A stretch of 64,000 nt of DNA from Escherichia coli (GCF_048403405.1 NZ_CP183129.1); one strand, 5' to 3'. Shown: positions 23,244 through 55,292, numbered from the stretch's first letter. The notes: generated by a model not told the origin, from the letters alone. Program-made: numbers and translations.

Positions 23244-23678
23244 CAGTGTTTCTCCTTTCGCCCGCCAGAGTAAAAAGCAACCGTTTACGTTAATGAAACT
23301 GTCTAAACACATGCTCGTGGAGTGCCAGTTTTTGCGAGGAAGGGGAGTTAGAGACAGGAATTGCGGAGGCAATCACATAATCGTGGTTAAACCACGAAAA
23401 TGAGAAGAGAACCTGACAATGGAATTATCTGTAATTTTCTCATATTGATATTTCATTAATCATTCTGGCATGTCGCACTCTCGCATTTAATCGTTTTTAT
23501 CTGGATAGCGCTCTTTTGGTCGGCAATGTTGAAGTAATGAAAGCGGCACAGATTGAGGGGCAATAATTTGAACTCAGTCGCAAAATTATAATTAAATCGG
23601 CCATGCTACCTAATATATGCCCATTTATTGCATCGCGAAATTTGAGAAGACATAACTCATTAAATGAAAGGGATGCAA

Positions 23679-30423: not shown

Positions 30424-33294
30424 TTATATTTTTTCCAGCGCGGTGAGTATTTTCTCCGGTGTGAAATGCCATTCGCGTAACCAGATGCCGCATGCATCGT
30501 GAATTGCGGTAGCAATCGCCGGAGCTGCGCCATTTACACCGATTTCCGAGATCGATTTCGCCCCGAACGGGCCGACTTTATCGTCGCTCGGCACCAGCAC
30601 AGCGCGGAAATCACGCGGAATATCGCCTATTTTCGGTGCGCCGTAACTGCGTAAATCACGCGTTAACGGGTGACCTTCGGCGTCATAAATGATTTCTTCG
30701 CTCATACTGTGGCCGATTGCACGAAGGGTGGCACCGTAGATTTGTCCCAACGCTAACTCTGGATTGACCGGTGTACCGCAATCCAGCAAGGCGTAGAATT
30801 TATCCAGGCGGATTTCCCCCGTACGCGTGTTGACGGCAACTTCAGCAAAGTTTGCGCCATACGGGAAGGCGAAATCAGGCGTGATATAACTGCCAGTTCC
30901 CACCAGTGAACCAAAGCCGGTGCCGGTTTCGCCTTTATGGGCAATATCCCCGAAACTAACTTCGCCTTTCTTGCCGCGTACGACGCCCGGCGTTGCTAGT
31001 TGGACATCTGCCACTGGCTCACCCAACATTTGCGCACCGTGGAACAGAATTTTCTCCCGCAGATTTTCTGCTGCCAAGCGCGCCGCGTTACCCGAGAAGC
31101 AAGTACCGGACGAGGCATATGCGCCTTTATCAAACAACGCATGATCGGTATCACCGGAGATAACATGCACGTCCTGCGGTGGGCAGTGCAGCACTTCTGC
31201 TGCCAGTTTCGTCACCACCGTATCCAGACCAGTACCAATATCCGCACCGCCAGAATGAACGATAAAGGTACCGTCTGATTCCAGTTTGATCATGCAGTTA
31301 GCCTGATCGATATCTGGGATCCCTGATTTCTGCATGATAATGGCGACGCCACGACCGATGTGCCAGTCACCGTTTTGTGGTTTTGGTGAAGACCATTGGA
31401 TCATCTCGCGACCCTGACGCAGGATCTCTTCCAGTGCGCAGCTGGCGGCGGAAGGAACGGAGGTCGGCGCTTTACCTTCACCGATTGCACCGAGAATTTT
31501 CAGCTCTTGCCCTTCGTGTACCCGGTTACGTTCGATAATTTCCAGTTGGTCGATCTGTAACTGTTCAGCCAGTTCCGCTAATGCCATGGTGATAGCGAAG
31601 TTACCTTTCGGTGCGCCATAACCCTGATAAGCACCATTTGGGCAAATGTTGCTGTAGTAGGTGGTGACCTGGAAATCGACGTTATCGCACGGATATAACG
31701 GCAGCGACAGCGCCGGTCCGTTACACGGTACGGTGAGTGAGTGGTTGCCGTAAGGGCCAGTGTTGGCGCGGAAATCCATCTTCACTGCCGTCAGGCGACC
31801 ATCTTTTTTCGCTCCCAGTTTGACGGTGACTTTCGCGACGTGACGAGAGGTGTTAGCAATAAACTCTTCTTCACGGGTGTAGCGGAACAGTACCGGACGC
31901 CCGGTCACGCAGGTTGCCCAGGCGCACACTTCTTCCAGCAGGATGTCCTGTTTAGACCCAAAACCGCCGCCAACTCGCTCTTTAATGACATGAACTTTAT
32001 GTTGTTTCATGCCCACGAGGCGCGCGACCTGGCGGCGTAAGTGCCATGGTACTTGGGTGGAGGCGTGGATAACCAGACGATCGCCGTCCATACGGGTAAA
32101 GCAGATATGAGTTTCAGTCGGGCACTGCTGCGCCTGCGTTGAGTTATAGGTTCGCTCAATGATCACATCGGCATCGGCAAAGCCTTTGTCCATATCGCCA
32201 ATATGACCATGAATACTGGCGGCGATATTTTTACGGGGGCGAGAACCGATCGGGAAGTTGATGATCATATGCTCGCCGCGCTGGGCTGCATGGCTGTTAT
32301 CGTCTTCCAGAGTATCTGGCGCACCAGCAACATACACCACCGGTTCATCGTGCACGACAGGCGCATCTTCCGCCATTGCTTCGTCGATCGACATTACAGG
32401 TTTAAGCACTTCATATTCAACGTCGATGAGCTTCAGTGCTTCGAGCGCAATGTCTTCACTTTCTGCGACGACCGCAGCAACGCGATCGCCGACGTGACGC
32501 ATTTTCTTGCCGAACATACGGCGGTCAAGCGGTGACGGTTCCGGTGCGCTCTGACCGCCCGGGGTATAGTAGATATCCGGGCAATTCAGGTGAGTAATAA
32601 CGTGAACAACGCCCGGTAAGGCTTCAGCTTTGCTGACATCCAGATGAGTAATCAGTGCGTGAGCGTGTGGGCTACGTAACATTTTAATGACGCAGGCATC
32701 AGCCGTTACGCGGTCTTCAACATAGCAGGGTTTCGCCTGCACCATTTTCGCGGCATCAGTTTTAGGATAATGCTTACCAATGACTTCAAGGTCATCGCGG
32801 AAAGTCGGAGCGATATCAATGGTGGCCTGCGGATTATTTTTACGTGCAACCGCCAGTTCAATGACCTGATAGTATTGTTGCCAGCCTGCATCGCGGCTGA
32901 ACAAACCAGAAAGCGCGTCGTCGATCTCTTCGCGGGTCGGTGCGGCAATGCGATCGAGAAGATCGGTGATAATCAGAGCCGCAGCTGGATCGTTATAACC
33001 AGACTGCACCACGCCAACATCAACCATTGCCTGTTGAACCAGACTTAACTCGTTCCATTTGCCCAGAGACTCTGTGGTACGAATATCTGCCTTCTCTAAC
33101 TGTGCGGCGATAAGCAAGGACGCGTTAACGATATTACCGTTACAGATAATTGCGTCAGAACCGGCAAACCCGAATCCATCATCGCTGTTGCGTACAGAGT
33201 GCATTCCCATGTTAAACAACAGCTTTTGCACGTTTTCGCCTGGATTAACGGTTAGCTCCTGAGGCGCGCCATTTAAAGTAAAGTGGATGATCAT
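30424..33294 (-). CDS. xdhD: Molybdopterin-containing hydroxylase, fused 2Fe-2S plus molybdenum-binding subunit (xanthine dehydrogenase family; putative selenium-dependent)
   Basis: 956 aa; aldehyde-oxidase/xanthine-dehydrogenase-type large subunit with an N-terminal iron-sulfur domain. Confidence 0.88.
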   Translation of the reverse strand: MIIHFTLNGAPQELTVNPGENVQKLLFNMGMHSVRNSDDGFGFAGSDAIICNGNIVNASLLIAAQLEKADIRTTESLGKWNELSLVQQAMVDVGVVQSGYNDPAAALIITDLLDRIAAPTREEIDDALSGLFSRDAGWQQYYQVIELAVARKNNPQATIDIAPTFRDDLEVIGKHYPKTDAAKMVQAKPCYVEDRVTADACVIKMLRSPHAHALITHLDVSKAEALPGVVHVITHLNCPDIYYTPGGQSAPEPSPLDRRMFGKKMRHVGDRVAAVVAESEDIALEALKLIDVEYEVLKPVMSIDEAMAEDAPVVHDEPVVYVAGAPDTLEDDNSHAAQRGEHMIINFPIGSRPRKNIAASIHGHIGDMDKGFADADVIIERTYNSTQAQQCPTETHICFTRMDGDRLVIHASTQVPWHLRRQVARLVGMKQHKVHVIKERVGGGFGSKQDILLEEVCAWATCVTGRPVLFRYTREEEFIANTSRHVAKVTVKLGAKKDGRLTAVKMDFRANTGPYGNHSLTVPCNGPALSLPLYPCDNVDFQVTTYYSNICPNGAYQGYGAPKGNFAITMALAELAEQLQIDQLEIIERNRVHEGQELKILGAIGEGKAPTSVPSAASCALEEILRQGREMIQWSSPKPQNGDWHIGRGVAIIMQKSGIPDIDQANCMIKLESDGTFIVHSGGADIGTGLDTVVTKLAAEVLHCPPQDVHVISGDTDHALFDKGAYASSGTCFSGNAARLAAENLREKILFHGAQMLGEPVADVQLATPGVVRGKKGEVSFGDIAHKGETGTGFGSLVGTGSYITPDFAFPYGANFAEVAVNTRTGEIRLDKFYALLDCGTPVNPELALGQIYGATLRAIGHSMSEEIIYDAEGHPLTRDLRSYGAPKIGDIPRDFRAVLVPSDDKVGPFGAKSISEIGVNGAAPAIATAIHDACGIWLREWHFTPEKILTALEKI

Positions 33295-38550: not shown

Positions 38551-38871
38551 AACCCTCTCCTTAGCTTATACAGATATCATTGAGTGACCGGTGTTGAGAA
38601 ATCCGGTGGTTTAGGGGGATAGAGCAACAATCGCACCACTCTTGCCAGGTTTGGCGGGAAATATAAAAAAATGTGAGGCGGCTCGAAACTTAGGGGCTTT
38701 TTGTGAAAGAACTCACAGGTGCCAAATGAGAATTAAAATCACTCCTGAAAATTATTATTGCCAGCCCATTTATCACTTTTTCTCTTTTCTCAAAATCAGT
38801 GATTCCTTATCATTATGATAAAGAGAACTGGAAGGGTTAAATATTTGAACGCAATCGTTTAACTACGTTTT

Positions 38872-39552: not shown

Positions 39553-40323
39553 GTGAAAAGTATAGTTGACCCATCGGCATTATTCATTGATTTAGGTGCG
39601 CAGAAACGTCCCACTGTGATTTCTGTTGTTGGTGCTGGGGGGAAAACCAGCTTGCTTTTTTGGCTGGCAGAACTGCTCCAGGCTAGCGGCAGGCGTGTGT
39701 TAATCACGACGACGACACATATGTTTATGCCAACGTCTCACTGGCCCGTGGTTTTCTGTCGTGATCCCGCCATGCTTCCTCATGCGTCTTTTATATCCCC
39801 CATTTCATTTTGTTTTCACAGCTGGAAAGCGAACCAGGGAAAAGTGCAGGGATTTACGCCAGAAGCGATTGATGCACTGGTACAACGATCAGAGTGTGAC
39901 GTAATTCTCATTGAGGCAGATGGCTCGCGTGGAATGCCGTTAAAAGCGCCTGATGAGCACGAACCTTGCATACCTAAAAGCAGTTGCTGCGTGATTGCTG
40001 TGATGGGAGGACATATTTTGGGTGCAAAAGTGAGCACAGAAAATGTCCATCGCTGGTCGCAGTTTGCTGATATTACCGGGTTAACACCTGATGCACCCTT
40101 GCAACTGAGCGATCTCGTTGCGCTGGTTCGCCACCCTCAGGGCGCGTTTAAAAACGTACCGCAAGGTTGTCGGCGAGTCTGGTTCATTAACCGTTTTTCT
40201 CAATGTGAGAATGCGATTGCGCAAAGCGAGCTCCTTCAACCGCTGCAACAACACAACGTAGAGGCAATCTGGCTGGGCGATATACAAGAACATCCTGCAA
40301 TCGCGCGCAGATTTGTGAATTAG
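39553..40323 (+). CDS. yqeC: Selenium-dependent molybdenum hydroxylase system protein YqeC (P-loop-like)
   Basis: 256 aa with a VVGAGGKTSLLFWLA Walker-A-like motif. Confidence 0.85.
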   Translation: MKSIVDPSALFIDLGAQKRPTVISVVGAGGKTSLLFWLAELLQASGRRVLITTTTHMFMPTSHWPVVFCRDPAMLPHASFISPISFCFHSWKANQGKVQGFTPEAIDALVQRSECDVILIEADGSRGMPLKAPDEHEPCIPKSSCCVIAVMGGHILGAKVSTENVHRWSQFADITGLTPDAPLQLSDLVALVRHPQGAFKNVPQGCRRVWFINRFSQCENAIAQSELLQPLQQHNVEAIWLGDIQEHPAIARRFVN

Positions 40324-45723: not shown

Positions 45724-46920
45724 TTAAGGTGCTACAGCGTGTTTGCCTTCCCAGACAACTTCGCGGTAGTGCTTCACGTCGGTGTCGCCTTCAGTGCTGA
45801 TAACCAGCACCACGGCATCTTTGTTCAGCGCCAGTTTTTCCATCAGGCTTTGACGTTGTGGGTGATAATGAACCGCTGCGAGAACGCCCAAACCGACAGC
45901 GCCGGATTCGCCGGAGATGATGCGCGGGTCGTTGCCGTACGGATTACCCAGCACGCGCATACCTAATGCGGCAACGCTGTCCTGGCAGGAGATGAATTGG
46001 GTGGCGCAGTTACGTAGGATTTCCCAGCCCAGCGGGTTAGGTTCGCCACAGGCCAGGCCTGCCATGATGGTGGCCATATCACCGCCAACGTTGACGATGT
46101 CGCCTTTGACGCCAGAGCGATAAATACAGTCAGCTTTGTCAGGTTCAACAATAATGCTGTGCAGATTTTGCGGGCTGTAGACGTCGACCAGATAACCCAG
46201 CACACCACCAGCCATTGCACCGACACCGGCTTGCAGCAGAACGTGCGTCGGGGTTACGCCCATTTCACGCATTTGCTCGACGGCTTCATCTGCCAGTGTT
46301 GCGTAGCCTTGCATGATCCAGGTTGGGATTTTGGTGTAACCTTCCCAGGCGGTATCTTGCACCACTTCCCAGCCGTGCTGCTGCGCGTGTTGCATGGTCA
46401 GGCGAACGGTATCGTCATAGTTCATATCCGTGACGATGCACTCGGCACCGAGGTTCAGAATGGCGTCAACGCGTTCCTGAGCAGAACCTTTCGGCATGTA
46501 AATCACCGCATTCTGTCCGAGTTGCTGTGCTGCCCACGCCACACCGCGCCCGTGGTTGCCGTCGGTGGTGGTCGCGAAGGTCATTTTTTCGCCGATGGCA
46601 TTTTTCAGATGCTCAAATGACAGCGTTTCGATATCAAGATGATATTTTTCACACAATAATTGAGCGATGGCGTACGCACCGCCGAGCATTTTGAAGGCGT
46701 TCAGACCGAATCGTTTTGATTCGTCTTTGACGAGAATTTTCTTCACACCAAAAAGGTTTGCGAGATCGTCCAGCGCACAAAGCGGTGTTGGGCGATAACC
46801 AGCAATTTTCTGATGGAACTGGCGCGCCAGTTTGGCCTGGCTTTGCGAAAAGAGCGGTGATGTTTCGCCGTTGAAAAATTTGTTATCGGCGATATCAATC
46901 TTCAATGAGAAAACGGACAT
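45724..46920 (-). CDS. dpaL: Diaminopropionate ammonia-lyase (PLP-dependent, fold type II)
   Basis: 398 aa; also known as ygeX. Confidence 0.88.
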   Translation of the reverse strand: MSVFSLKIDIADNKFFNGETSPLFSQSQAKLARQFHQKIAGYRPTPLCALDDLANLFGVKKILVKDESKRFGLNAFKMLGGAYAIAQLLCEKYHLDIETLSFEHLKNAIGEKMTFATTTDGNHGRGVAWAAQQLGQNAVIYMPKGSAQERVDAILNLGAECIVTDMNYDDTVRLTMQHAQQHGWEVVQDTAWEGYTKIPTWIMQGYATLADEAVEQMREMGVTPTHVLLQAGVGAMAGGVLGYLVDVYSPQNLHSIIVEPDKADCIYRSGVKGDIVNVGGDMATIMAGLACGEPNPLGWEILRNCATQFISCQDSVAALGMRVLGNPYGNDPRIISGESGAVGLGVLAAVHYHPQRQSLMEKLALNKDAVVLVISTEGDTDVKHYREVVWEGKHAVAP

Positions 46921-46977: not shown

Positions 46978-48168
46978 TTATTTCACGCGTTCTTGCGCTT
47001 CTTTCAGCAGTTGCTCGAGCAGTGCACCTGGTTTGGCGTATTTACGGGACAGGATCATCGCGGCGATGATATAAGGCTTCCAGCTGGCTTCTTTGTAGGT
47101 CGCGATACGGTATTTTTCGAATACGCCTTCAGTCACTTCACCTTCTTTGCAGGATACGCCGCTGATATCAGCTGGCAGGCAGTGCATGTACAGGGCTTCG
47201 CCATCACGGGTCAGTTCCATCATCTCTTCAGTACAATGCCAGTCTTTGTGTTGCGCGTTCTGTGCCAGACACTGTTTTTCCAGTGCTTTTAAGCCTTCGT
47301 GATCGTTCGCACGCAGCAATTCAGTACGCTCTTCCATCACTTTGTAAGGTGCCCATGACTTCGGATAAACGATGTCTGCGTCTTTGAAGGCTTCTTCCAT
47401 GCTGGTGACCTGACGGAAGCTACCGCCGGAGGCTTTAGCATTGTTTTTAGCGACTTCAACGACATCCGGGATCAGGTCGTAGCCTTCCGGATGGGCCAGG
47501 GTGACATCCATACCGAAGCGAGTCATCAGACCGATGATGCCTTGTGGTACAGATAGCGGTTTGCCATAGCTTGGGGAGTAGGCCCAGGTCATGGCGATTT
47601 TTTTACCTTTCAGGTTTTCCAGTGAACCAAAGTGTTCACGTAACCATGCCAGGTCAGCCATTGACTGAGTCGGGTGGTCAATATCGCATTGCAGGTTCAC
47701 TAAAGCCGGACGTTGCGGCAGCACACCCTGCTTGTAACCGTCATCAAGTGCAGCGCCAACTTCACGCATATAGGCGTTGCCTGCGCCCAGATACATATCG
47801 TCGCGAATACCAATAGCGTCGGCGCAGAAGGAGATCATATTGGCGGTTTCACGCACGGTTTCGCCGTGAGCGATTTGTGATTTGCCTTCATCGAGATCTT
47901 GCTGTGCAAGGCCGAGCAGGTTAAGCGCGGAAGCATAAGAGAAGCGGGTACGAGTGGAGTTGTCGCGGAATACGGAAATACCTAATCCACTATTAAAGAC
48001 TTTGGTTGAGATGTTTTCAGCACGCAGTGCTTTTAATGCTGCGGCAACGTCCAGTACTTGTTTCAGTTCATCTGGCGTCTGTTCCCACGTTAACAAAAAA
48101 TCTTTCTCGTGAAGGTGAGAGGTCAGCGAATTGATATCCTTAATCAGCTCATTAACAGTTTTCATCAT
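46978..48168 (-). CDS. ygeW: Carbamoyltransferase YgeW (aspartate/ornithine carbamoyltransferase family)
   Basis: 396 aa with STRTR and HCLP signature motifs (DNSTRTRFSYASA; YMHCLPADISG). Confidence 0.88.
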   Translation of the reverse strand: MMKTVNELIKDINSLTSHLHEKDFLLTWEQTPDELKQVLDVAAALKALRAENISTKVFNSGLGISVFRDNSTRTRFSYASALNLLGLAQQDLDEGKSQIAHGETVRETANMISFCADAIGIRDDMYLGAGNAYMREVGAALDDGYKQGVLPQRPALVNLQCDIDHPTQSMADLAWLREHFGSLENLKGKKIAMTWAYSPSYGKPLSVPQGIIGLMTRFGMDVTLAHPEGYDLIPDVVEVAKNNAKASGGSFRQVTSMEEAFKDADIVYPKSWAPYKVMEERTELLRANDHEGLKALEKQCLAQNAQHKDWHCTEEMMELTRDGEALYMHCLPADISGVSCKEGEVTEGVFEKYRIATYKEASWKPYIIAAMILSRKYAKPGALLEQLLKEAQERVK

Positions 48169-48257
48169 AAAGTCCCGGTAGTGGAATGACAGGCAAAGTG
48201 GTTTATTTCACTGTGACTTGCCAAAGTGATTGGTGTTTTCACAGCTATACCTGGGAC

Positions 48258-48276
48258 TAACAATAAGTGTGCCAGA
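48258..48276 (-). promoter_or_regulatory. Candidate sigma54 (-24/-12) promoter reading toward ygeW
   Basis: Minus strand reads CTGGCACACTTATTGTT: the -24 TGGCAC element and the correct spacing to a -12 TTGT (consensus TTGC), about 90 nt upstream of the ygeW start and next to the divergent sigma54 activator gene ygeV. One mismatch in the -12 GC. Confidence 0.4.
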
Positions 48277-48643
48277 ATTATCCACGGGGCTGCAAAAGAC
48301 TAATTTGACGGATAATGTGTGGGGTTGATCACAAATTGATGCCAGCTTCCGGTTGTTTGTAAAATACGAAAACGATTGGCTTTTCTTATCGCGTTATTTA
48401 TTTACTGCTAAGTATCAGAAATAAGATAAAGGGACAGGCTATCTCTCTTCAGTTTGATAAACTCACCGCCGTAATTCTCATATTGATATAGAAATGTGAT
48501 ATCTCTTCCATAATTTCATTAGAAAGTGATAAAAATCTTATGTTTTTATCAAAGCCAATTTCGCCTGAGTTAATATCATCATGATCTGTGAACCATCAAC
48601 GTCTTCAATGATCGACTTTTAAGTAAGTCTGGAAGGTAAAGCT

Positions 48644-50422
48644 ATGGAGCTTGCTACTACGCAGTCAGTATTGATGCAAATTCAACCGACAATTCAGCGT
48701 TTTGCCAGAATGCTTGCCAGCGTTTTGCAGCTTGAGGTTGAGATCGTTGATGAAAACTTGTGTCGCGTCGCCGGAACGGGCGCGTATGGGAAGTTTCTTG
48801 GTCGCCAGTTGAGCGGCAACTCACGCCTGCTCCGCCACGTCCTGGAAACGAAAACTGAAAAAGTTGTGACACAGTCTCGCTTCGATCCCCTTTGTGAAGG
48901 TTGCGATAGTAAAGAAAATTGCCGCGAAAAAGCATTTCTGGGTACGCCTGTCATTTTACAGGATCGTTGTGTTGGGGTGATAAGTTTGATTGCCGTTACC
49001 CACGAGCAACAAGAGCATATCAGTGATAATTTACGCGAATTTTCTGATTATGTTCGCCATATATCCACCATTTTTGTTTCGAAACTTCTGGAGGATCAGG
49101 GGCCAGGAGATAACATCAGTAAAATATTCGCGACCATGATCGATAATATGGATCAGGGCGTATTAGTTGTTGATGATGAAAGTCGGGTTCAGTTTGTTAA
49201 TCAGACTGCCTTAAAAACACTTGGTGTTGTACAAAATAATATTATTGGGAAACCTATCCGTTTCAGACCATTAACATTTGAGAGTAATTTTACCCATGGA
49301 CATATGCAGCATATTGTTTCGTGGGACGATAAAAGTGAATTAATCATTGGTCAATTGCATAACATTCAGGGCCGACAATTATTTTTAATGGCGTTTCACC
49401 AATCGCATACCAGTTTTTCTGTAGCAAATGCACCTGATGAACCGCATATTGAACAATTGGTTGGCGAGTGCCGTGTTATGCGGCAATTAAAACGACTCAT
49501 TAGCCGTATTGCACCCAGCCCATCCAGCGTTATGGTGGTTGGTGAAAGCGGCACGGGTAAAGAAGTTGTCGCCCGTGCAATCCATAAGTTGAGCGGAAGA
49601 CGGAATAAACCCTTTATTGCTATCAACTGTGCCGCGATTCCGGAGCAGCTTCTGGAGAGCGAACTGTTCGGTTATGTTAAAGGCGCATTTACTGGCGCTT
49701 CTGCCAACGGTAAAACAGGGTTGATTCAGGCGGCGAATACGGGCACGCTGTTTCTCGATGAAATAGGTGATATGCCATTAATGTTGCAGGCTAAATTACT
49801 GCGCGCTATTGAGGCACGTGAAATTCTGCCGATTGGTGCCAGTAGCCCAATACAAGTCGACATTCGCATCATTTCTGCAACTAACCAGAATTTGGCCCAG
49901 TTCATTGCCGAAGGTAAATTCCGCGAAGATCTCTTCTACCGACTTAATGTTATCCCGATAACTCTGCCACCGCTGCGTGAACGTCAGGAAGATATTGAAC
50001 TACTGGTGCATTACTTTTTACATCTGCATACCCGTCGTCTGGGATCGGTTTATCCGGGCATTGCTCCCGATGTCGTCGAAATATTGCGTAAGCATCGTTG
50101 GCCCGGAAACCTGCGCGAGTTAAGCAATTTGATGGAATATCTGGTTAACGTGGTTCCTTCAGGTGAAGTTATCGACAGCACGCTATTGCCGCCAAATCTG
50201 CTGAATAATGGCACAACGGAGCAAAGTGATGTAACAGAGGTCAACGAGGCGCACCTGGCACTCGATGATGCGGGCGGCACGGCGCTGGAGGAGATGGAAA
50301 AGCAAATGATCCGCGAGGCGCTTTCACGTCATAACAGCAAGAAGCAAGTTGCTGATGAACTGGGCATCGGCATTGCTACGCTCTACCGCAAGATTAAAAA
50401 ATATGAGTTGTTAAACACATAA
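48644..50422 (+). CDS. ygeV: Sigma54-dependent transcriptional activator (NtrC/bEBP family) with N-terminal sensory domains
   Basis: 592 aa; AAA+ Walker A (VVGESGTGKEVVARAIH), the GAFTGA sigma54-contact motif and a C-terminal HTH. Confidence 0.9.
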   Translation: MELATTQSVLMQIQPTIQRFARMLASVLQLEVEIVDENLCRVAGTGAYGKFLGRQLSGNSRLLRHVLETKTEKVVTQSRFDPLCEGCDSKENCREKAFLGTPVILQDRCVGVISLIAVTHEQQEHISDNLREFSDYVRHISTIFVSKLLEDQGPGDNISKIFATMIDNMDQGVLVVDDESRVQFVNQTALKTLGVVQNNIIGKPIRFRPLTFESNFTHGHMQHIVSWDDKSELIIGQLHNIQGRQLFLMAFHQSHTSFSVANAPDEPHIEQLVGECRVMRQLKRLISRIAPSPSSVMVVGESGTGKEVVARAIHKLSGRRNKPFIAINCAAIPEQLLESELFGYVKGAFTGASANGKTGLIQAANTGTLFLDEIGDMPLMLQAKLLRAIEAREILPIGASSPIQVDIRIISATNQNLAQFIAEGKFREDLFYRLNVIPITLPPLRERQEDIELLVHYFLHLHTRRLGSVYPGIAPDVVEILRKHRWPGNLRELSNLMEYLVNVVPSGEVIDSTLLPPNLLNNGTTEQSDVTEVNEAHLALDDAGGTALEEMEKQMIREALSRHNSKKQVADELGIGIATLYRKIKKYELLNT

Positions 50423-54085: not shown

Positions 54086-54539
54086 GCAAGATTCACCCGT
54101 AGCGGTTGCTTCCCGCGCTTCCATAGAAATCCCCTCGATTTGAACATTTGGTTCTTATGGCAAAGATTTAGTCTAAGCAGGCAAGATTTACGCCAGAAAC
54201 GACGATAAGCGTTAGGGGAGGAAGGAAGTGTGATGACGTTAAAAAAACACAGATATGATACGAAACAGGACTCTGAATAGGGGCAGTGATACGTATCAAT
54301 ATGAGTGGCGATAAAATCAATGTGATAAATCAGGATTATTACGCATCAGGATGGGAAATAGGGTAAAAAAGTCAGGAAATTCGATACCTCTGCAGCGAAT
54401 ATTTTGCTGATGATACTTCCCTTTGCCAAATGAAATTAACCTCTTTCTCTATTACCGCGTTTTTCCAGAAGCAAGAGATTGGGTATCCAGAGGCTGGCTG
54501 CTATGATATGGCGTCTTGTTTTTTAAGCGAGGAAAGATT

Positions 54540-55292
54540 TTGAGTGCGGGACGCCTGAATAAAAAATCTCTGGGTATCGTGATGTTGTTATCGGTTGGAC
54601 TGCTTTTGGCGGGCTGCTCGGGTAGCAAATCATCCGATACAGGAACGTATTCCGGCTCCGTTTACACCGTGAAACGGGGGGATACGCTATATCGTATTTC
54701 GCGCACCACGGGAACCAGCGTAAAAGAGCTGGCGCGACTGAACGGCATTTCCCCCCCTTACACCATTGAAGTTGGTCAGAAACTAAAACTGGGTGGGGCG
54801 AAAAGTAGCAGTACACGTAAATCAACCGCCAAATCAACGACCAAAACCGCATCGGTTACACCGTCATCAGCAGTACCGAAATCTTCCTGGCCGCCAGTAG
54901 GGCAACGTTGTTGGTTATGGCCAACGACAGGGAAAGTTATCATGCCGTATTCGACAGCTGATGGCGGCAATAAAGGGATTGATATCTCAGCTCCACGGGG
55001 TACACCTATTTACGCCGCGGGTGCAGGAAAGGTGGTGTATGTGGGCAACCAGCTGCGTGGCTACGGTAATCTCATCATGATTAAACACAGTGAAGATTAC
55101 ATTACGGCTTACGCCCATAATGACACGATGCTGGTAAATAATGGGCAAAGCGTGAAGGCTGGGCAAAAAATCGCCACTATGGGGAGCACTGATGCGGCAT
55201 CGGTTCGCCTGCATTTCCAGATTCGTTACCGTGCTACGGCAATTGATCCGCTGCGTTACTTGCCGCCTCAGGGCAGCAAGCCAAAATGCTGA
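54540..55292 (+). CDS. ygeR: LysM-domain / M23-peptidase-family lipoprotein
   Basis: Likely TTG start after a GAGGAAAG SD (MSAGRLNKKSLGIVMLLSVGLLLAGCSG, lipobox LLAGC); LysM segment (YTVKRGDTLYRISRTTG) and an M23 C-terminal domain. The exact start is uncertain. Confidence 0.82.
   Translation: MSAGRLNKKSLGIVMLLSVGLLLAGCSGSKSSDTGTYSGSVYTVKRGDTLYRISRTTGTSVKELARLNGISPPYTIEVGQKLKLGGAKSSSTRKSTAKSTTKTASVTPSSAVPKSSWPPVGQRCWLWPTTGKVIMPYSTADGGNKGIDISAPRGTPIYAAGAGKVVYVGNQLRGYGNLIMIKHSEDYITAYAHNDTMLVNNGQSVKAGQKIATMGSTDAASVRLHFQIRYRATAIDPLRYLPPQGSKPKC

Follow-up and report, generated by a model that had tools for sequence, protein, structure and literature searches.

In the psp system the activator gene pspF is divergent from pspA, and the enhancer overlaps the pspF promoter, an arrangement resembling that of the weak dyad found here beside ygeV; the psp enhancer is located much closer to its promoter than the enhancer proposed below for ygeW. 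The prpR-prpBCDE locus of Escherichia coli and Salmonella has a layout like that of ygeV/ygeW, with a divergent gene for an enhancer-binding protein, a sigma-54-dependent catabolic operon and control by CRP, but the family branch of its activator and the ligand differ. Most characterised enhancers are found at -100 to -150, and the more distant position of the proposed ygeW enhancer, at about -235, speaks against it. At the level of the core promoter, the PspF-dependent pspA and pspG share with ygeW a good -24 TGGCA and a -12 TTGT in place of TTGC, whereas the psp promoters differ from it in activator, signal and enhancer sequence.

Homologues of the genes themselves are under similar control in distant bacteria. 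In the DioR regulon of Clostridiales, an enhancer-binding protein controls homologues of ygeW, ygfK, ssnA, ygeY, dpaL and yqeB via sigma-54 promoters (Nie et al., 2019, PMC6615313); the proteins of this system are only 35-39% identical to YgeV and its gene order differs. Two loci of this kind were found in Firmicutes. In Sedimentibacter (L005, 8135-8151) a YgeV-like gene is followed by a sigma-54 promoter, TTGGCACAAGTTTTGCT, scoring 20.0 bits, and homologues of ygeX-ygeW-ygeY-ygfK, and in a Clostridium MAG (L003) a YgeV-like gene is followed by xdhABC-ssnA. They represent a cross-phylum counterpart of the E. coli arrangement, which agrees with the DioR regulon. A YgeV paralogue (38% identical) was also observed in Citrobacter werkmanii, where it is divergent from dpaL-like and M20-peptidase-like genes preceded by a sigma-54-like site, CTGGTAAGCATTTTGCT (L004, 5697-5713; 14.4 bits); this looks like a second, related module of an enhancer-binding protein and a sigma-54 site.

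In the window, i.e., the whole 64-kb stretch of the E. coli chromosome analysed here, ygeW and ygeV are separated by a divergent spacer at 48169..48643, which was matched in 5180 of 5426 complete E. coli genomes. The preliminary description had given the length of this intergenic region as 475 bp and called it long and AT-rich, and both statements are correct (37% G+C vs 50% for the whole window). ygeW is the first gene of the operon ygeW-ygeX(dpaL)-ygeY-hyuA-yqeA(arcC), which encodes the lower part of the route by which E. coli degrades uric acid anaerobically. This route has recently been tied to host urate homeostasis and gout, and in engineered probiotics the ygeW/ygeV spacer was swapped for constitutive promoters (PMC12507026). 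ygeW opens with ATGATG (window 48165-48170), with the ORF start at 48168 and the RefSeq start one codon later, at 48165. The coordinates of all main features are collected in Table 1.

Table 1. Genes, promoter elements and candidate regulatory sites of the ygeV/ygeW locus and of related promoters in the window. Positions relative to promoters are given for the centres of the sites.
Feature	Sequence	Coordinates	Strand	Remarks
ygeW		46978..48168	-	Knotted carbamoyltransferase; RefSeq annotation
ygeW 5' leader, predicted		48169..48248	-	80 nt; block GCCTGTCATTCCACTACCGGGA before ATG conserved (11 genera)
Nominal ygeW transcription start		48248	-	12 nt downstream of -12; from usual sigma-54 promoter geometry
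ygeW sigma-54 core promoter (17-mer)	CTGGCACACTTATTGTT	48259..48275	-	-24 TGGCAC at 48274..48269, -12 TTGT at 48263..48260; sequence, matrix, conservation, ChIP-seq site OS30
ygeW CRP-like site	TGTGATCAACCCCACA	48318..48333		9/10 consensus positions, one mismatch; about -77.5
PurR-box-like sequence	AGCCAATCGTTTTCGT	48366..48381	-	K-12 version AGCCAAACGTTTTCGT, better match, also in three further genera
Half-dyad, candidate YgeV site 2	TTTATCAAACTGAAGAG	48445..48461		-205; TTATCA and TG invariant
Dyad (TATCA-N3-TGAGA), candidate YgeV site 1	TATATCAATATGAGAAT	48474..48490		-234
Third TATCA half-site	ATATCACATTT	48492..48502		About -247; ATCACA invariant
Weaker dyad	CAGATCATGATGATATT	48572..48588		56-72 bp upstream of ygeV ATG, -332 from PygeW; GATA invariant
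ygeV		48644..50422	+	RefSeq annotation
xdhA sigma-54 promoter	CTGGCGTAAATCTTGCC	54180..54196	-	Bonocora OS29
xdhA dyads		54292-54308; 54313-54329		-130; -151
ygfK sigma-54 promoter	GTGGTGCGATTGTTGCT	38623..38639	-	Bonocora OS31
ygfK CRP consensus	TGTGAAAGAACTCACA	38702-38717		Perfect match; -97.5
ygfK dyad		38806-38822		-201
ygfT sigma-54 site	TATGCCCATTTATTGCA	23616..23632	+	Bonocora OS32
ygfT CRP-like site		23567-23582		Two mismatches; -68.5
ygfT dyad		23436-23452		-199
yqeC-internal sigma-54 promoter		39954-39970	+	
yqeC-internal CRP-like site		39895-39910		One mismatch; -78.5
yqeC-internal dyad copy		40196-40212		16.7 bits; +223
xdhD-internal sigma-54 match	ATGGCGCAAACTTTGCT	30844-30860	-	15.2 bits
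PurR-box-like sequence near uacT	AAGCAACCGTTTACGT	23275-23290	+	Just upstream of probable uacT start

The divergent gene encodes a protein with all signatures of an enhancer-binding protein. The GAFTGA motif (residue 347) and Walker A (GESGTGKE), on which this assignment was originally based, are both present in YgeV, and the Pfam search added Sigma54_activat, AAA_lid_14 and HTH_8, plus PAS. The same search revealed no receiver domain; apart from PAS, AAA+ and HTH_8 it gave just a weak GAF-like N-terminus. The C-terminal HTH domain covers about residues 540-592. In the paper on IsrR, YgeV was labelled an 'orphan response regulator' and a link to indole and virulence was reported. Its N-terminal region contains a Cys-rich stretch, CEGCDSKENC. 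YgeV is the sole enhancer-binding protein that we found encoded in the cluster.

A YgeV iModulon has been described (Lamoureux et al., 2023, PMC10602906). It comprises xdhABC, ygeWXY, hyuA, ygfK, ssnA, ygfM, xdhD, ygfT and uacT, its definition cites the published sigma-54 promoters treated here, and it was almost never active across 1035 RNA-seq samples. Reduced expression of ygfT in a ygeV mutant is also cited in that paper. In the 2026 version of Reg-Seq, a massively parallel reporter study, the promoters of the YgeV iModulon were without consistent footprints.

The sigma-54 core promoter of ygeW

The sigma-54 site of ygeW is correct but already known. ygeW (b2870) was among the newly predicted members of the sigma-54 regulon (Francke et al., 2011, PMC3162934), and sigma-54 binding was subsequently revealed by ChIP-seq at site OS30, assigned to ygeW as the downstream gene (Bonocora et al., 2015, PLoS Genet, Table 1, PMC4591121). 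The OS30 peak (3004190) is weak, 3-fold above threshold, and it is listed without an EcoCyc flag, which places it among the eight new intergenic sites of that study. In vitro, a gSELEX peak of the RpoN holoenzyme was found in the ygeV/ygeW spacer, at 53% without NtrC and 55% with NtrC (Shimada et al., 2021, PMC8743547). The site studied here and OS30 are the same object, with identical 17-mer, gene and orientation, and therefore its membership in the sigma-54 promoter class is not in doubt. For ygeW, these papers lack a transcription start, an activator site, a CRP site and cross-genus conservation.

The proposal of a sigma-54 promoter for ygeW is thus supported by published binding to the exact 17-mer, and also by its orientation, matrix score and invariance in 11 genera. 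The motif had been placed on the minus strand at about 48258-48276, some 90 nt upstream of ygeW, with a -24 TGGCAC and a correctly spaced -12 TTGT. Its position proved right to within 1 nt (48275..48259), the distance from the 3' end of the 17-mer to the ygeW ATG (48168) is 90 nt on the ygeW strand, and the TGGCAC-N5-TTGT arrangement has exactly the canonical sigma-54 spacing.

A position-weight-matrix scan for RpoN sites, suggested earlier as a check, was carried out with a matrix built from 38 intergenic ChIP-seq sites (Bonocora et al., 2015), with ygeW and its neighbours left out. The ygeW site, at 16.0 bits, is the top match on both strands of the window; the median score of known sigma-54 sites is 16.5 bits. 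From the exact score distribution, the chance of such a score is 2e-6 per position, with 0.0009 matches expected in the spacer (that strand) and 0.25 in the whole window. A simple count of the TGGCAC-N5-TTGC pattern with one mismatch gave nine occurrences in the window vs 7.0 expected, i.e., no enrichment; such a count is without power, and the weight matrix is therefore needed.

In the matrix scan, the ygeW motif is the sole credible sigma-54 site of the spacer. A second TGGCA at 48345 (CTGGCATCAATTTGTGA) was rejected as a sigma-54 site since its -12 element is one base out of register and it scores 2.6 bits. Toward ygeV, no sigma-54 promoter was revealed in the spacer: the best score in that orientation was 1.6 bits in E. 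coli, and nothing was conserved elsewhere. The second-best sigma-54 match of the window is located inside xdhD in the sense orientation (Table 1); we did not find it in the main-text tables of Bonocora et al. (2015).

We compared the spacer with the divergent ygeV/ygeW loci of Enterobacter sp. Bisph1, Cedecea, Pluralibacter, Serratia, Kluyvera, Intestinirhabdus, Raoultella, Trabulsiella, Atlantibacter and Citrobacter amalonaticus, which together with E. coli represent 11 enterobacterial genera. Pairwise identity in the alignment is 52% and 14% of the columns are invariant; no invariant runs are longer than TTATTGTTA (48266..48258) in the -12 region and TGGCAC at -24. In all 11 genera this site is the best sigma-54 match of the spacer (14.9-16.7 bits), at 79-106 nt from the ygeW ATG, and within the 17-mer divergent E. 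coli strains differ at a spacer base only. The preliminary description had regarded the deviation of TTGT from TTGC as a reason for caution, which turns out to be unnecessary. The non-consensus T at -12 is invariant in 11 of 11 genera and is therefore a conserved feature rather than decay, and TTGT is also found at -12 in pspA and pspG, whose promoters are experimentally confirmed (Bonocora et al., 2015, Table 1, PMC4591121).

Transcription of ygeW would start near 48248 and produce an 80-nt leader. A scan of the leader and spacer against Rfam gave a best match of only 14.8 bits (E = 0.15), i.e., no riboswitch or known RNA. In the published literature searched, we found neither a mapped ygeW transcription start nor experiments that measure ygeW expression directly in strains mutated in rpoN or ygeV.

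Conserved dyads as candidate YgeV sites

The spacer alignment has other conserved footprints besides the core promoter, the strongest of them being the block AAATATG-N8-ATCACATTT-N2-ATATCAATATGA(G/T)AAT-N12-TTTATCAA-N2-TG. It had been suggested that the spacer leaves room for upstream activator sites, and this idea fits the conserved dyad that the block includes at about -235, together with a half-dyad and a third half-site (Table 1). TATCACATT of the third half-site is also found upstream of xdhA, and the upstream regions of ygeW and ygfT share 15 identical nucleotides, ATATCAATATGAGAA. The weaker dyad next to ygeV may be a site of ygeV autoregulation or part of the ygeV promoter.

The dyad was analyzed with two matrices built from different sets of sites. 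The forward matrix was derived only from the ten non-E. coli orthologous ygeW dyads and run over the E. coli window. Its top three matches were the dyads of ygeW (26.4 bits), ygfT (-199; 22.5 bits) and ygfK (-201; 20.0 bits). In 30 local-composition shuffles of the window the best score had a mean of 14.4 and a maximum of 19.2 bits, so that both the ygfT and the ygfK dyads exceed the best of all shuffles. The reverse matrix was derived only from the ygfK, xdhA and ygfT sites and run over the 11 ygeW spacers. In 10 of them the top match was located at -234 to -237 (16.6-22.1 bits), and in Cedecea the ygeW dyad ranked second (13.7 bits); the 99th percentile for shuffled ygeW spacers was 12.8 bits. 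Overall, the TATCA-N3-TGA(T/G)A dyads of ygeW, ygfT, ygfK and xdhA score 16-24 bits in the cross-validated matrices. Two further matches without an obvious promoter link were observed at 46630-46646 and 55068-55084 (15.7 and 15.3 bits); one falls within dpaL/ygeX, and the second precedes xdhA by about 900 bp.

At ygeW the distance between the dyad and the promoter varies by no more than 3 bp although the sequence in between can drift freely, which argues for a physical link between them. In other genera the ygfK dyad is found at -201, -181 and -203, and the xdhA dyads are found at about -130 and about -150 in all four genera examined. Since the dyad tracks the sigma-54 promoters of the YgeV iModulon, and since YgeV is the only enhancer-binding protein that we found in the cluster, we read it as the activator site of YgeV. 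Thus, the TATCA-N3-TGA(T/G)A dyad is likely the YgeV upstream activator site, YgeV being its probable binder by co-occurrence. No description of a YgeV operator was found in the published literature searched.

CRP-like sites and the layout of the cluster promoters

Between the ygeW dyad and promoter lies a CRP-like site, TGTGATCAACCCCACA, that retains the critical G and C positions of TGTGA-N6-TCACA. Its GTGA-N7-C-N-CA core is kept in 11 of 11 genera. A 'native Crp-binding site' in the ygeW/ygeV spacer was mentioned in a recent study, which also reports that the urate degradation pathway is glucose-repressed (PMC12507026, 2025). The CRP-like site would couple ygeW expression to glucose availability.

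The other sigma-54 promoters of the cluster have comparable elements. Comparison of xdhA, ygfK and ygfT with ygeW revealed that: (i) like ygeW, they belong to the iModulon and have TATCA-N3-TGATA dyads upstream (xdhA, -130/-151; ygfK and ygfT, about -200; ygeW, -235/-205); (ii) their CRP-like sites are displaced by about one or two helical turns relative to that of ygeW; and (iii) their core motifs are weaker, 6-12 bits vs 16 bits for ygeW. With the C/T of the -12 element taken as -12, the CRP-like sites are spaced in steps of approximately 10 and 20 bp, an indication that they lie on one helical face. Upstream of ygfK there is a perfect CRP consensus, located between dyad and sigma-54 promoter and retained in each of the three additional genera compared, Trabulsiella, Atlantibacter and Citrobacter. 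The sites of xdhA (-67.5) and ygfT (-68.5), with two mismatches each, are weak evidence and could be due to chance.

The sigma-54 promoter inside yqeC was validated as driving yqeB (Bonocora et al., 2015, PMC4591121). It also has a CRP-like site upstream, and a copy of the dyad is located downstream of it, in the long leader about 160 bp before yqeB (Table 1).

A PurR-box-like sequence is present in the ygeW spacer only in E. coli, Trabulsiella, Atlantibacter and Citrobacter, and ygeW was placed in a predicted PurR cluster by a computational study (PMC4576408, 2015). Another PurR-box-like sequence of the window precedes uacT (Table 1).

On balance, we lean slightly towards the view that the dyad is a hitherto undescribed operator of YgeV (IsrR), present at ygeW, ygfK, ygfT and xdhA and at +223 in yqeC, and that it and the CRP-like sites (about -68, -78 and -98) form an architecture common to these promoters. 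Neither the candidate operator nor the common arrangement of enhancer, CRP site and promoter seems to have been described before.

Proposed activation of ygeW and rival explanations

Taken as a whole, the most probable model, which we hold with considerable confidence, is that 48275..48259 (minus strand) is the sigma-54 promoter of ygeW-ygeX-ygeY-hyuA-yqeA, activated by YgeV from the dyad, with the CRP-like site between them. The sigma-54 holoenzyme, as the published ChIP-seq and gSELEX data show, sits on the -24 TGGCAC and -12 TTGT elements in a closed complex that is presumably unable to open the DNA alone. A signal acting via the N-terminal/PAS region would activate YgeV and lead to its assembly on the dyads at about -205 to -250. 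DNA looping would then carry YgeV to the polymerase, with the CRP site at -77.5 probably bending the DNA, and ATP hydrolysis via the GAFTGA loop of YgeV would open the promoter.

Published binding is compatible with other readings, as Bonocora et al. (2015, PMC4591121) themselves stress that binding is no proof of promoter function and suspect many of their new sites to be non-productive. If the ygeW site belonged to these and never fired, the near-complete silence of the YgeV iModulon across the RNA-seq samples would be accounted for. However, both core elements are invariant in 11 genera at a constant distance to ygeW, the enhancer-like dyad keeps its distance within 3 bp, the site is intergenic and correctly oriented next to an activator gene, and the homologous operon of Firmicutes has a strong sigma-54 promoter. 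A site that never fires is therefore extremely unlikely. It is also conceivable that sigma-54 binds without the site being a working promoter, and that ygeW is transcribed mainly by sigma-70 with CRP at 48318-48333. The conservation of the CRP-like site in all genera, the repression of the pathway by glucose, the weak ChIP signal and the E. coli GATAAT at 48282..48277, which immediately precedes the -24 element, are in line with this explanation. However, the GATAAT is not maintained beyond E. coli, no bases of the spacer are better conserved than those of the sigma-54 elements, and the gene of the cognate activator adjoins. Moreover, a sigma-70 scan of 48100-48720 revealed only two weak sites, which does not exceed the number expected from shuffled sequence (1.4 +/- 1.1). 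One of the two overlaps with the start codon of ygeW, and the location of both is unsuited to transcription of ygeW from the CRP site. We consider transcription mainly by sigma-70 decidedly unlikely.

The remaining question is whether a real sigma-54 promoter could be served by an activator other than YgeV, e.g., NtrC, or the dyads be bound by another protein, e.g., Fur. Nitrogen limitation induces the nearby sigma-54 promoter within yqeC, and part of a Fur box is recognisable in the ygfK dyad (13 of 19 positions). Nevertheless, no NtrC-like site was found in the spacer with up to three mismatches allowed, and NtrC left the gSELEX signal unchanged. Fur as the source of the dyads was rejected, since matches of 10-13 of 19 positions are common in the window and the half-sites face the wrong way. 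In addition, the dyad is associated with those sigma-54 promoters of the cluster whose expression varies jointly in the YgeV iModulon. Control by another activator thus seems unlikely, and activation by YgeV is the preferred reading.

The promoter itself is no news, and further work is worthwhile only on the candidate operator and the common layout. The map of promoter, CRP site and candidate operator makes testable the binding of YgeV, its inducing ligand and the reported link of IsrR to indole and virulence. Since the dyad and the CRP-like sites are also found at xdhA, ygfK and ygfT, the whole purine/urate cluster would be one YgeV regulon. If this is true, the layout of enhancer, CRP bend and sigma-54 promoter would put the urate/purine cluster of gut Enterobacteriaceae under one regulator and catabolite control.
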